Shown: piece by piece, positions 488-3,379 of the stretch | How the letters are laid out: each line of letters starts with the position of its first letter | How positions within the stretch are numbered: the first letter of the stretch is position 1 | DNA from: Escherichia coli | Lineage (GTDB): Bacteria > Pseudomonadota > Gammaproteobacteria > Enterobacterales > Enterobacteriaceae | DNA length: 11,286 nucleotides | Strand: one strand, 5' to 3' | NCBI RefSeq assembly: GCF_003334765.1 | Contig: NZ_QOWT01000056.1 | Program-made: the position numbers and the translations under genes | The notes under the pieces: generated by a model | Databases searched by the model: none | Told to the model about the DNA's origin: nothing | What the model saw: the letters and a program-made list of their open reading frames with translations, nothing else

Positions 488-2170
488 ATGAAGTCTGCAT
501 TAAAGAAAAGTGTCGTAAGTACCTCGATATCTTTGATACTGGCATCTGGTATGGCTGCATTTGCTGCTCATGCGGCAGATGATGTAAAGCTGAAAGCAAC
601 CAAAACAAACGTTGCTTTCTCAGACTTTACGCCGACAGAATACAGTACCAAAGGAAAGCCAAATATTATCGTACTGACCATGGATGATCTTGGTTATGGA
701 CAACTTCCTTTTGATAAGGGATCTTTTGACCCAAAAACAATGGAAAATCGTGAAGTTGTCGATACCTACAAAATAGGGATAGATAAAGCCATTGAAGCTG
801 CACAAAAATCAACGCCGACGCTCCTTTCATTAATGGATGAAGGCGTACGTTTTACTAACGGCTATGTGGCACACGGTGTTTCCGGCCCCTCCCGCGCCGC
901 AATAATGACCGGTCGAGCTCCCGCCCGCTTTGGTGTCTATTCCAATACCGATGCTCAGGATGGTATTCCGCTAACAGAAACTTTCTTGCCTGAATTATTC
1001 CAGAATCATGGTTATTACACTGCAGCAGTAGGTAAATGGCACTTGTCAAAAATCAGTAATGTGCCGGTACCGGAAGATAAACAAACGCGTGACTATCATG
1101 ACAACTTCACCACATTTTCTGCGGAAGAATGGCAACCTCAAAACCGTGGCTTTGATTACTTTATGGGATTCCACGCTGCAGGAACGGCATATTACAACTC
1201 CCCTTCACTGTTCAAAAATCGTGAACGTGTCCCCGCAAAAGGTTATATCAGCGATCAGTTAACCGATGAGGCAATTGGCGTTGTTGATCGTGCCAAAACA
1301 CTTGACCAGCCTTTTATGCTTTACCTGGCTTATAATGCTCCGCACCTGCCAAATGATAATCCTGCACCGGATCAATATCAGAAGCAATTTAATACCGGTA
1401 GTCAAACAGCAGATAACTACTACGCTTCCGTTTATTCTGTTGATCAGGGTGTAAAACGCATTCTCGAACAACTGAAGAAAAACGGACAGTATGACAATAC
1501 AATTATTCTCTTTACCTCCGATAATGGTGCGGTTATCGATGGTCCTCTGCCGCTGAACGGGGCGCAAAAAGGCTATAAGAGTCAGACCTATCCTGGCGGT
1601 ACTCACACCCCAATGTTTATGTGGTGGAAAGGAAAACTTCAACCCGGTAATTATGACAAGCTGATTTCCGCAATGGATTTCTACCCGACAGCTCTTGATG
1701 CAGCCGATATCAGCATTCCAAAAGACCTTAAGCTGGATGGCGTTTCCTTGCTGCCCTGGTTGCAAGATAAGAAACAAGGCGAGCCACATAAAAATCTGAC
1801 CTGGATAACCTCTTATTCTCACTGGTTTGACGAGGAAAATATTCCATTCTGGGATAATTACCACAAATTTGTTCGCCATCAGTCAGACGATTACCCGCAT
1901 AACCCCAACACTGAGGACTTAAGCCAATTCTCTTATACGGTGAGAAATAACGATTATTCGCTTGTCTATACAGTAGAAAACAATCAGTTAGGTCTCTACA
2001 AACTGACGGATCTACAGCAAAAAGATAACCTTGCCGCCGCCAATCCGCAGGTCGTTAAAGAGATGCAAGGCGTGGTAAGAGAGTTTATCGACAGCAGCCA
2101 GCCACCGCTTAGCGAGGTAAATCAGGAGAAGTTTAACAATATCAAGAAAGCACTAAGCGAAGCGAAATAA
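488..2170 (+). CDS. ydeN: Ser-type sulfatase (arylsulfatase family), periplasmic, 560 aa
   Basis: Start taken at ATG 488 rather than the track's TTG 455 because a GAAGAGG Shine-Dalgarno at 474-480 sits 7 nt upstream. The N-terminus MKSALKKSVVSTSISLILASGMAAFAAHA-ADD is a Sec-type signal peptide. The sulfatase signature S-G-P-S-R-A-A-I-M-T-G-R is at 881-916, with Ser in the formylglycine position. The 560-aa length matches my recollection of E. coli YdeN. Confidence 0.9.
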   Translation: MKSALKKSVVSTSISLILASGMAAFAAHAADDVKLKATKTNVAFSDFTPTEYSTKGKPNIIVLTMDDLGYGQLPFDKGSFDPKTMENREVVDTYKIGIDKAIEAAQKSTPTLLSLMDEGVRFTNGYVAHGVSGPSRAAIMTGRAPARFGVYSNTDAQDGIPLTETFLPELFQNHGYYTAAVGKWHLSKISNVPVPEDKQTRDYHDNFTTFSAEEWQPQNRGFDYFMGFHAAGTAYYNSPSLFKNRERVPAKGYISDQLTDEAIGVVDRAKTLDQPFMLYLAYNAPHLPNDNPAPDQYQKQFNTGSQTADNYYASVYSVDQGVKRILEQLKKNGQYDNTIILFTSDNGAVIDGPLPLNGAQKGYKSQTYPGGTHTPMFMWWKGKLQPGNYDKLISAMDFYPTALDAADISIPKDLKLDGVSLLPWLQDKKQGEPHKNLTWITSYSHWFDEENIPFWDNYHKFVRHQSDDYPHNPNTEDLSQFSYTVRNNDYSLVYTVENNQLGLYKLTDLQQKDNLAAANPQVVKEMQGVVREFIDSSQPPLSEVNQEKFNNIKKALSEAK

Positions 2171-2182
2171 CTAAACCTTCAT

Positions 2183-2202
2183 GCGGCGGATTTTTCCGCC
2201 GC
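2183..2202 (+). terminator. Intercistronic hairpin between ydeN and ydeM (possible partial terminator or mRNA-stabilising stem-loop)
   Basis: Perfect 8-bp stem GCGGCGGA (2183-2190) / TCCGCCGC (2195-2202) with a TTTT loop. The downstream U-tract is weak (CTTATTG), so full termination is doubtful. It sits 13 nt after the ydeN stop and 20 nt before the ydeM ATG. Confidence 0.3.
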
Positions 2203-2221
2203 CTTATTGAGCGAGATAGCG

Positions 2222-3379
2222 ATGCACGTTACAGCCAAGCCCTCCAGTTTTCAATGTAATCTCAAATGTGATTACTGTTTTTACCTTGAAAAAGAGTCGC
2301 AGTTTACTCATGAAAAATGGATGGATGACAGCACTCTGAAAGAGTTCATCAAACAATATATCGCAGCGTCTGGCAATCAGGTCTATTTTACCTGGCAAGG
2401 CGGTGAACCCACTCTGGCTGGCCTGGATTTTTTCCGTAAAGTTATTCACTATCAACAACGCTATGCAGGCCAAAAACGTATTTTTAATGCATTACAAACG
2501 AATGGCATTTTATTGAATAATGAATGGTGTGCCTTTCTCAAAGAACATGAATTTCTGGTTGGTATCTCGATCGATGGCCCCCAGGAGTTACATGACCGTT
2601 ACAGACGCAGTAATTCAGGTAACGGTACTTTTGCAAAAGTGATAGCAGCCATCGAGCGTCTGAAATCATATCAAGTAGAGTTTAATACGTTAACCGTCAT
2701 TAATAACGTTAATGTCCATTACCCTCTTGAGGTTTATCATTTTTTAAAATCTATCGGCAGTAAACATATGCAATTTATCGAATTGCTAGAAACCGGGACG
2801 CCGAATATTGATTTCAGTGGTCATAGTGAGAACACATTCCGTATCATTGATTTTTCTGTGCCTCCCACGGCTTATGGCAAGTTTATGTCAACCATTTTTA
2901 TGCAATGGGTTAAAAACGATGTGGGTGAAATTTTCATCCGTCAGTTTGAAAGCTTTGTCAGCCGTTTTTTGGGGAATGGGCATACCAGTTGTATTTTCCA
3001 GGAGTCCTGCAAGGATAATCTGGTTGTTGAAAGTAATGGAGATATTTACGAATGCGACCATTTTGTCTATCCACAGTACAAAATTGGAAACATTAATAAA
3101 TCTGAACTCAAAACGATGAACAGTGTACAACTGACAGCGCAAAAAAAACGGATTCCAGCGAAATGTCAGCAATGTGCATATAAACCTATCTGCAATGGCG
3201 GTTGTCCTAAGCATCGTATTACTAAAGTAAACAATGAGACTGTTTCTTATTTTTGCGAAGGTTATAAAATCCTTTTTTCAACCATGGTACCTTATATGAA
3301 CGCCATGGTAGAGTTAGCTAAGAACAGAGTACCGCTTTACCACATTATGGATGTTGCAAAACAAATGGAGAATAATTAA
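2222..3379 (+). CDS. ydeM: Anaerobic sulfatase-maturating enzyme-like radical SAM protein with SPASM domain, 385 aa
   Basis: Radical-SAM CxxxCxxC motif C-N-L-K-C-D-Y-C at 2255-2278. C-terminal SPASM-type motif [14 protein letters not shown] (CX2CX5CX3C) at 3164-3205. ATG 2222 preferred over the track's TTG 2207 because it gives the 385-aa product that starts MHVTAKP, as expected for this family. Sits immediately downstream of a Ser-type sulfatase gene. Confidence 0.88.

Follow-up and report, generated by a model that had tools for sequence, protein, structure and literature searches.

In the AtsA/AtsB and anaerobic sulfatase-maturating enzyme (anSME) systems, a radical S-adenosylmethionine (radical-SAM) enzyme oxidises a Ser or Cys residue of an unfolded sulfatase precursor in the cytoplasm, and the sulfatase is subsequently exported, as reportedly established in work by Szameit (1999), Marquordt (2003), Fang (2004), Benjdia (2008) and Goldman (2013). 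Enzymes of the formylglycine-generating enzyme (FGE) type are not known to use Ser for this purpose. A related gene pair, ydeN-ydeM, resides in an 11,286-nucleotide stretch of Escherichia coli DNA (contig NZ_QOWT01000056.1, assembly GCF_003334765.1). This stretch was analysed at its full length and is called the window here, and positions without another label are those of the window. The genes ydeN (488-2170, + strand) and ydeM (2222-3379, + strand) are separated by a spacer (2171-2221) of exactly 51 base pairs (bp), which is the distance given in an initial annotation of this DNA made from its sequence alone. They are the genes designated b1498 and b1497 in the RefSeq annotation of strain K-12.

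We conclude that ydeN-ydeM probably constitutes a self-contained cassette for a Ser-type sulfatase that is matured by YdeM, exported by the Sec pathway and controlled by CRP, AraC and GadX. Earlier publications cover the pair and a large part of its regulation; the pairing itself was described by Schirmer and Kolter (1998), as cited in PMC10878103. The additions made here are the closeness of YdeN, in sequence and predicted fold, to solved galactose-4-sulfatases, a chondroitin-type locus that encodes its relative P0122, a hairpin in the spacer between the two genes, and an IS5 element in the neighbouring gene ydeO.

YdeN is among the few periplasmic enzymes of E. coli K-12 that are conserved and well expressed and have no known substrate. 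Sulfatases govern access to host glycans in the gut, and the substrate of YdeN, once found, would explain why a sulfatase that is regulated by carbon source (CRP, AraC) and that moves as a two-gene unit is kept in 98% of E. coli genomes. With this pair, Ser-type formylglycine formation could also be studied conveniently in a standard laboratory organism. The most useful products of the current study are a narrower substrate hypothesis, which places galacto-configured 4-O-sulfates ahead of N-acetylglucosamine (GlcNAc)-6-sulfate, and the recognition of a conserved spacer hairpin.

Features of the YdeN and YdeM proteins

The 560-residue product of ydeN is classified as the precursor of a Ser-type S1 (formylglycine-dependent) sulfatase on the basis of Pfam and its identity to the K-12 protein. 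The Pfam Sulfatase model (PF00884) is covered in full (1-301; E = 1e-70), and the sole sulfatase motif, S132-G-P-S-R-A-A-I-M-T-G-R143 (nucleotides 881-916, + strand), follows the pattern of S1 sulfatases, which is (C/S)-x-P-x-R and then x3-(L/M)-T-G. Thus, Ser rather than Cys occupies the formylglycine position, as had been noted initially. All ten active-site residues of S1 enzymes are present (D66, D67, S132, R136, K183, H185, H286, D345, N346 and K364), and these catalytic and metal-binding positions are conserved in an alignment of 37 sequences that extends down to 30% identity. The AlphaFold model of YdeN has a predicted local distance difference test (pLDDT) score of 90.8. A Foldseek search with this model returned 435 chains of the Protein Data Bank (PDB) at E <= 0.001, and the matches listed are sulfatases.

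The N-terminus of YdeN, MKSALKKSVVSTSISLILASGMAAFAAHA/ADD, reads as a Sec-type signal peptide that comprises residues 1-29 (488-574, + strand) and has a predicted cleavage site at AHA/AD. By eye, it exhibits a Lys-rich n-region, a hydrophobic core and an A-H-A cleavage motif, and it carries no twin arginine. Model confidence is low at residues 1-28 and 30-46, and YdeN is listed as periplasmic in PMC10746267. Within residues 30-50 (575-640), the start of the mature protein contains a motif, K-A-T-K-T-N-V-A-F-(S/A)-D-F, that is conserved from E. coli to Fusobacterium. The next relatives, for example P0122, lack this motif, and a pLDDT below 50 predicts that it is disordered. It could have a role in export or in recognition by the maturase.

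The 385-residue product of ydeM is identified by NCBIfam and Pfam as an anaerobic sulfatase-maturating enzyme of the radical-SAM/SPASM type. It scores 505.5 bits on the NCBIfam model TIGR03942, 'anaerobic sulfatase maturase' (cut-off 349.45), over positions 1-362 of 363, and its Pfam domains are Radical_SAM and SPASM. The initial annotation had named two cysteine motifs, CxxxCxxC and CX2CX5CX3C, and both can be placed precisely. The first, C12-x3-C16-x2-C19 (2255-2278, + strand), is the radical-SAM cluster motif and aligns with C15, C19 and C22 of the Clostridium perfringens enzyme anSMEcpe. The second, C315-x2-C318-x5-C324-x3-C328 (3164-3205), is the SPASM motif and belongs to a set of eight auxiliary-cluster cysteines (C257, C263, C278, C315, C318, C324, C328 and C345; 2990-3256, + strand) that occupy the Aux I and Aux II ligand columns of anSMEcpe. 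In the alignment with that enzyme (PDB 4K36; E = 6e-63) all 11 Fe-S ligand cysteines line up, and the cluster cysteines of YdeM are invariant in eight of eight aligned maturases, E. coli AslB among them. Because the radical-SAM motif starts at residue 12, there is no room for a signal peptide. The earlier assignment of YdeN to the Sec pathway and of YdeM to the cytoplasm therefore agrees with the features of both N-termini, as far as these can be read from the sequence.

Conservation and distribution of the gene pair

Homologues that are 70-84% identical to YdeN are present in E. albertii, Citrobacter, Salmonella, Leminorella, Cedecea, Mixta and Yersinia, and also in Proteus, Aeromonas, Shewanella, Grimontia, Psychromonas, Iodobacter and Anaerobiospirillum, and the homologues in Fusobacterium are 54% identical. 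Ser is found at the formylglycine site in all 118 close homologues that contain the motif region, in each of 12 further genome loci whose motif was inspected (L017-L027 and L031) and in two Fusobacterium loci. When the sequences of a library are grouped at 50% identity, the YdeN clade is isolated, with the next clusters at no more than 45%, and those nearest full-length relatives outside the clade that were checked are Cys-type. Since the clade is entirely Ser-type and these relatives are Cys-type, YdeN and its homologues represent a Ser-type offshoot in a Cys-type neighbourhood.

In all 15 complete loci, which represent about 12 genera, the gene directly downstream encodes a YdeM homologue and shares the strand of the sulfatase gene, and the maturase gene likewise lies downstream in the seven genera that were inspected gene by gene. 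This arrangement and the TIGR03942 score (505 bits against 349) bear out the view that YdeM is a maturase of the AtsB/anSME type, and they support, at the level of sequence, a dedicated pair of Ser-type sulfatase and radical-SAM maturase. The other neighbours of the cassette are unrelated housekeeping or mobile genes that vary between genera. For example, an ABC transporter is found in Yersinia, an integrative element in Salmonella, and IS elements plus a porin in Aeromonas, and housekeeping genes flank the cassette in Grimontia, Psychromonas, Iodobacter and Anaerobiospirillum. The two-gene cassette is the unit of inheritance.

Both genes are under strong purifying selection. When E. coli is compared with E. 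albertii, the ratio of nonsynonymous to synonymous substitution rates (dN/dS) amounts to 0.013 in ydeN and 0.045 in ydeM. Of 5426 complete E. coli genomes, 5322 (98%) carry the pair, and 5300 records contain the junction between the genes at 99% identity or higher. A transcript and ribosome footprints of ydeN have been reported (PMC10746267), and so has a peptide in anaerobic rumen fluid (PMC3936929).

These observations bear on the possibility that E. coli carries a cryptic or non-functional pair, either because YdeM does not mature YdeN or because YdeN has lost its activity. Some features could be taken in this sense. The Shine-Dalgarno sequence of ydeM, as read from the sequence, is weak, E. 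coli reportedly does not mature a heterologous Ser-type AtsA when AtsB is absent, IS elements are frequent at the ydeN-ydeM locus, and no activity of YdeN has been reported (PMC10878103). However, a decayed pair is hard to reconcile with such low dN/dS values, with the intact state of every catalytic residue and cluster cysteine, with the near-universal presence of the pair in the species and with the transcription and translation of ydeN. Moreover, the cassette is intact after transfer into many genera. We therefore consider a cryptic pair to be highly improbable.

Two further occurrences were noted. An E. coli locus (L007 2615-5544; GCA_028249195.2) encodes a second YdeN-like Ser-type sulfatase, P0066, that is 77% identical to YdeN. 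Its gene directly follows a porin gene and adjoins an IS110-family transposase gene, and a maturase homologue could not be detected there. The P0066 module is complete in about 111 of the 5426 complete E. coli genomes, with a minority of the matching places on plasmids, and P0066 presumably depends in trans on the chromosomal ydeM gene. The other occurrence is in a metagenome-assembled genome (MAG) assigned to 'Candidatus Nanosynbacter sp.' (L017; JARKOR010000108.1), whose YdeN is identical to that of the window and whose YdeM is 99% identical. The pair in this MAG is almost certainly the result of E. coli contamination or mis-binning.

Candidate substrates of YdeN

In line with the initial annotation, which described the substrate of YdeN as undefined, no substrate had been reported as of 2024 (PMC10878103). 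Among proteins of solved structure, the best sequence matches of YdeN are the carrageenan galactose-4-sulfatases of family S1_19 (E = 2e-52 to 1e-50), followed by an S1_16 enzyme (7e-39), and the GlcNAc-6-sulfatase BT4656 (PDB 5g2v) reaches only 6e-30. The order is the same for the YdeN model in Foldseek, where S1_19 enzymes take ranks 1-14, an S1_16 enzyme takes rank 15, and S1_11 enzymes take ranks 41 and 45. YdeN is thus drawn to S1_19 by its top sequence and fold matches, yet it exhibits 25-28% identity in the structural alignments and forms an isolated group when sequences are clustered at 50%.

The nearest non-orthologous relative of YdeN is P0122 of Plesiomonas shigelloides (WP_152140429.1), which is 43% identical over 495 residues and which shares the insert and the C-terminal domain of YdeN. 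The P0122 locus comprises agaR-kbaZ-agaS, a mannose-family phosphotransferase system (PTS), a 4-O-endosulfatase, a KdgM porin, an anSME, P0122, a PF10022 gene, a kbaY-type tagatose-bisphosphate aldolase and a kdgK-like 2-keto-3-deoxygluconate (KDG) kinase, such that P0122 resides between the anSME gene and the PF10022 gene. The second sulfatase of the locus matches the chondroitin/dermatan sulfate 4-O-endosulfatase of PDB 6J66 with E = 2e-289 and is nearly identical to it. This gene set is apparently the one expected for the use of chondroitin-sulfate disaccharides. Considered in its own right, the Plesiomonas locus (L015 1-13348) appears to be a utilisation locus for chondroitin-sulfate disaccharides and N-acetylgalactosamine (GalNAc) in an enterobacterium.

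Because S1_19 and S1_16 enzymes are closest to YdeN in both sequence and fold, and because P0122 lies in a chondroitin-type locus, we tentatively favour a galacto-configured sulfated sugar as the substrate. Most simply, this would be galactose (Gal)- or GalNAc-4-sulfate, encountered as a small molecule in the periplasm. A different proposal was made in PMC10878103, where YdeN is suggested to be a GlcNAc-6-O-sulfatase for the sulfated GlcNAc of mucin. That suggestion draws on a 33% similarity of YdeN to BT4656, and the same paper reports that in mice an araC mutant adapted to the gut upregulates ydeM along with nagABE and galP. BT4656 is indeed a significant match in our searches. However, the best stretch of this S1_11 match covers residues 108-187, whereas the S1_19 match at 2e-52 extends over residues 109-436, and the S1_11 folds rank below those of both S1_19 and S1_16. 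In addition, P0122 is encoded in a GalNAc/chondroitin locus and not in a nag locus. A GlcNAc-6-O-sulfatase is therefore judged to be unlikely, and a galacto-configured 4-O-sulfate is carried forward here as the preferred candidate.

Control of ydeN-ydeM expression

Two CRP-like sites upstream of ydeN had been noted initially, and both were recovered in a search of the window with the consensus TGTGA-N6-TCACA. They are the only matches with one mismatch in 11.3 kb, where 0.36 would be expected, and two or more such matches were obtained in 9 of 200 shuffled sequences. The distal site, AGTGAcatccaTCACA (193-208), has its centre 286.5 bp upstream of the ATG of ydeN, and the proximal CRP-like site, TGTGActaactTCACT (407-422), is centred at position 414.5. 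Published data demonstrate binding at the distal site. A 21-mer that is bound by CRP in Footprint-seq, where the Kd was estimated at 1.8 nM (PMC12871828), is the exact reverse complement of window positions 190-210, and chromatin immunoprecipitation sequencing (ChIP-seq) in enterotoxigenic E. coli (ETEC) places CRP on the distal ydeN site in vivo (PMC4287617). Furthermore, ydeN is among the CRP targets identified by genomic SELEX (PMC3105977).

A sigma-70 promoter is predicted by consensus scan at 421-450 (+ strand), where CTTACA and TAAAAT are separated by an 18-nucleotide spacer (9 of 12 positions match). The scan as a whole finds no more sites in the window than in shuffled sequence, and this promoter is accordingly a prediction. 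If transcription starts where the predicted -10 element suggests, the proximal CRP-like site lies approximately 42-43 bp upstream of the start, and it is a candidate for class II geometry. A Shine-Dalgarno sequence for ydeN, AAGAGG, was read from the sequence at 475-480 (+ strand), seven nucleotides before the ATG at 488.

The initial annotation's description of the expression conditions of the pair as undefined is out of date. Arabinose-dependent repression of ydeNM was reportedly described by Stringer in 2014. AraC occupies the region upstream of ydeN only with arabinose (PMC3738151), and PMC10878103, which cites Stringer 2014, names ydeN as one of AraC's direct targets and states that expression of ydeMN is high in an araC deletion strain. 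The ydeN promoter is also bound by GadX, which lowers the transcript (PMC4918353). At pH 4.4 both the mRNA and the ribosome occupancy of ydeN fall about 40-fold, along with those of mal, xyl and tre genes (PMC10746267). A scan of the window with the AraC half-site TAGC-N7-TCCATA, with up to three mismatches allowed, gave 95 matches against 84 expected, and the AraC site is not placeable in this way.

A stem-loop in the ydeN-ydeM spacer

Folding of the spacer reveals an 8-bp G+C stem-loop, GCGGCGGA-uuuu-UCCGCCGC (2183-2202, + strand), that is followed by CUUAUUG. Its minimum free energy (MFE) is -18.7 kcal/mol (z = -3.1). Stable hairpins with z <= -3 are present in the corresponding spacers of six of seven genera, and their sequences are unrelated between genera. 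The values for Yersinia, Aeromonas, Leminorella, Iodobacter and Anaerobiospirillum range from -3.1 to -5.1, and the hairpin of Salmonella is weaker (z = -1.4). The spacers that carry hairpins are 2171-2221 of the window, L003 9672-9728, L005 9681-9738, L009 9681-9729, L011 9672-9740 and L012 9825-9884.

Good U-tracts follow some of the spacer hairpins (Leminorella, Anaerobiospirillum) but not others, and each maturase gene retains its own Shine-Dalgarno sequence after the hairpin. The simplest reading of this arrangement is that the hairpin serves as a partial terminator or as a stabiliser of the 3' end, by which the level of the maturase, a catalyst, would be kept below that of the sulfatase, its stoichiometric substrate.

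Downstream of ydeM, a 12-bp hairpin that coincides with inverted repeat I1 is followed by UUUCGUC (3430-3461, + strand; MFE -21.1 kcal/mol, z = -5.2). This is probably the ydeNM terminator. Neither the spacer hairpin nor the hairpin after ydeM was called by a consensus terminator scan, such that both are known from folding only. The latter escapes the scan because its T run is short. On the opposite strand, the small K-12 open reading frame (ORF) yneP (b4747; 3345-3473, minus strand) overlaps the last 35 nucleotides of ydeM and spans the entire putative terminator hairpin.

Proposed function of the cassette

By analogy with the systems described above, we infer that YdeM makes formylglycine on YdeN. 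In this proposal, cytoplasmic YdeM with its three [4Fe-4S] clusters would abstract a C-beta hydrogen from Ser132 of the unfolded YdeN precursor, and oxidation would convert this residue to C-alpha-formylglycine. The modified precursor would then be exported by the Sec pathway with removal of the 29-residue signal peptide, if the order of events is the same as in those systems. In the periplasm, the formylglycine hydrate and a divalent metal held by D66, D67, D345 and N346 would hydrolyse the sulfate ester. The substrate would be a sulfated sugar small enough to pass the outer membrane, such as a Gal- or GalNAc-4-O-sulfate mono- or disaccharide, which other gut bacteria might free from chondroitin sulfate, mucin or dietary carrageenan. 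The desulfated sugar could then be taken up via ordinary sugar transporters. Transcription would proceed from a CRP-dependent promoter and be shut off when arabinose is present, through AraC, and in acid, through GadX, and the intercistronic stem-loop would probably lower expression of the maturase relative to the sulfatase.

A broader form of this proposal can be offered as a possibility that we consider doubtful. The pair might be a desulfation cassette that stands alone, spreads horizontally among Proteobacteria and Fusobacteria of gut and aquatic habitats and removes 4-O-sulfate from fragments that contain Gal or GalNAc. Primary degraders would supply these fragments as they break down chondroitin sulfate, mucin or carrageenan. 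Such a cassette would operate by cross-feeding, and the hairpin would set a high ratio of sulfatase to maturase.

Several observations weigh against parts of this account. The Klebsiella Ser-type AtsA, when produced in aerobically grown E. coli, was reportedly found by Szameit in 1999 to need co-expressed AtsB, and Benjdia is said to have found in 2007 that deletions of aslB and ydeM are without effect on Cys-type maturation. Chromosomal YdeM and AslB would thus not have substituted for AtsB under those conditions, and YdeM would be either inactive there or specific for its partner. The spacer hairpin of E. coli has a poor U-tract. A CRP site with at most one mismatch was found upstream of the Leminorella orthologue only, and because the site is not conserved upstream of most orthologues, this regulation would have been acquired locally. 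With regard to the substrate, only expression data were found when the literature was searched for an activity of YdeN. The identity of YdeN to any characterised sulfatase (25-28% in structural alignments and about 40% locally) is too low for specificity to be transferred. Moreover, the loci examined show no consistent linkage of the cassette to a gene for a transporter, porin, glycosidase or sugar catabolism, and there a porin adjoins it only in Aeromonas (one also adjoins the second E. coli paralogue). Finally, the Yersinia orthologue rises 2.5-fold with the cys regulon in an iscR mutant, which fits sulfur scavenging (PMC4055776).

The Yersinia result and the lack of linked sugar genes are among the points that would be accommodated if YdeN were instead a broad aryl- or alkyl-sulfate esterase that scavenges sulfur, like the AtsA enzymes of Klebsiella or Pseudomonas. 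The best NCBIfam match of YdeN is the 'arylsulfatase' model PRK13759, and the sulfonated azo dye FD&C Red 40 induced ydeN but no other gene (PMC10653809). However, the PRK13759 score is 124 bits against a cut-off of 481, and the closest solved enzymes are all carbohydrate sulfatases. The documented regulators of ydeN in E. coli also respond to carbon and acid (CRP, AraC and GadX), with no sulfur regulator in the literature found, and ydeN falls and rises together with mal, xyl and tre genes (PMC10746267, PMC2731931). A sulfur-scavenging esterase consequently seems improbable, and hydrolysis of a galacto-configured sulfated sugar by YdeM-matured YdeN is the proposal that we tentatively retain.

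The surrounding DNA

From position 75 to its end, the window is the reverse complement of MG1655 positions 1,571,726-1,582,937, from which it differs at five of 11,212 bases. A window position x therefore converts to MG1655 coordinate 1,583,012 - x. The gene order is that of K-12, namely ydeO', ydeN, ydeM, yddA, yddB and pqqL. The YdeN protein is identical to that of MG1655, and ydeM differs by one synonymous base. Outside the pair, non-synonymous differences from K-12 were noted in YddB (D351G; position 6444) and in PqqL (L76R; position 8036). No RNA genes were found in the window by Rfam and tRNA scans.

The window is not K-12 throughout, as bases 1-74 have no match in MG1655. They constitute the right end of an IS5 element, with 98.7% identity over 79 nucleotides to an annotated IS5 copy, and the terminal repeat cttattcgcaccttcc lies at 59-74. 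The element is inserted at TTAG within the last four codons of ydeO (75-86 encode ...LAI*), approximately 410 bp upstream of ydeN, where MG1655 carries no IS. IS5-family insertions occur in other strains at or near the same point. The insertion could alter the C-terminus of YdeO or the expression of ydeN. Between the insertion and the ydeN control region, a strong hairpin formed by TGGGGCAG...CTGCCCCG and followed by a T run (134-166), which the terminator scan also calls on the minus strand, is likely the ydeO terminator.

Comparison with known systems

One of the closest known counterparts of ydeN-ydeM is AtsA/AtsB of Klebsiella pneumoniae. There, as is proposed here by analogy, a periplasmic Ser-type sulfatase with a Sec signal is encoded together with a cytoplasmic Fe-S maturase of the AtsB family that acts before export. 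The two systems differ in several respects. In Klebsiella, atsB precedes atsA, expression is under sulfur and tyramine control, and both arylsulfatase activity and formylglycine have been demonstrated, whereas ydeN-ydeM is known from sequence. Also, Klebsiella AtsA is an arylsulfatase, whereas the nearest solved relatives of YdeN are carbohydrate sulfatases.

A second Ser-type sulfatase, AslA (motif SSPTR), is encoded beside an anSME-like gene in the same genome. AslB shares all 12 cysteines of YdeM but is only 42.6% identical to it, and aslA and aslB are on opposite strands, unlike the tandem ydeN and ydeM genes. The resemblance of YdeM to C. perfringens anSMEcpe (PDB 4K36-4K39) extends over residues 4-359 and includes the C-D dipeptide after the third auxiliary cysteine. 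The natural partner of anSMEcpe is reportedly a Cys-type sulfatase, and the enzyme is said to accept both Cys and Ser peptides. In contrast, the partner clade of YdeM is exclusively Ser-type.

On the sulfatase side, YdeN shares a catalytic core (target-normalised TM-score about 0.8) with the 4-O-sulfatases of S1_19, such as ZgCgsA (9HH2/9HH3), Ps i-CgsB (6BIA/6B0J) and PsS1_19B (6PSM), and of S1_16. Unlike YdeN, these enzymes are Cys-type, with the Ser forms in the PDB being engineered mutants, and they come from marine polysaccharide-utilisation loci. YdeN additionally carries an extra segment at about residues 70-108, the conserved N-terminal motif and a longer C-terminus. The P0122 locus resembles the cassette in that an anSME gene adjoins the sulfatase gene, there immediately upstream. 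However, P0122 is Cys-type and belongs to a catabolic locus of 12 genes, whereas ydeNM stands alone.

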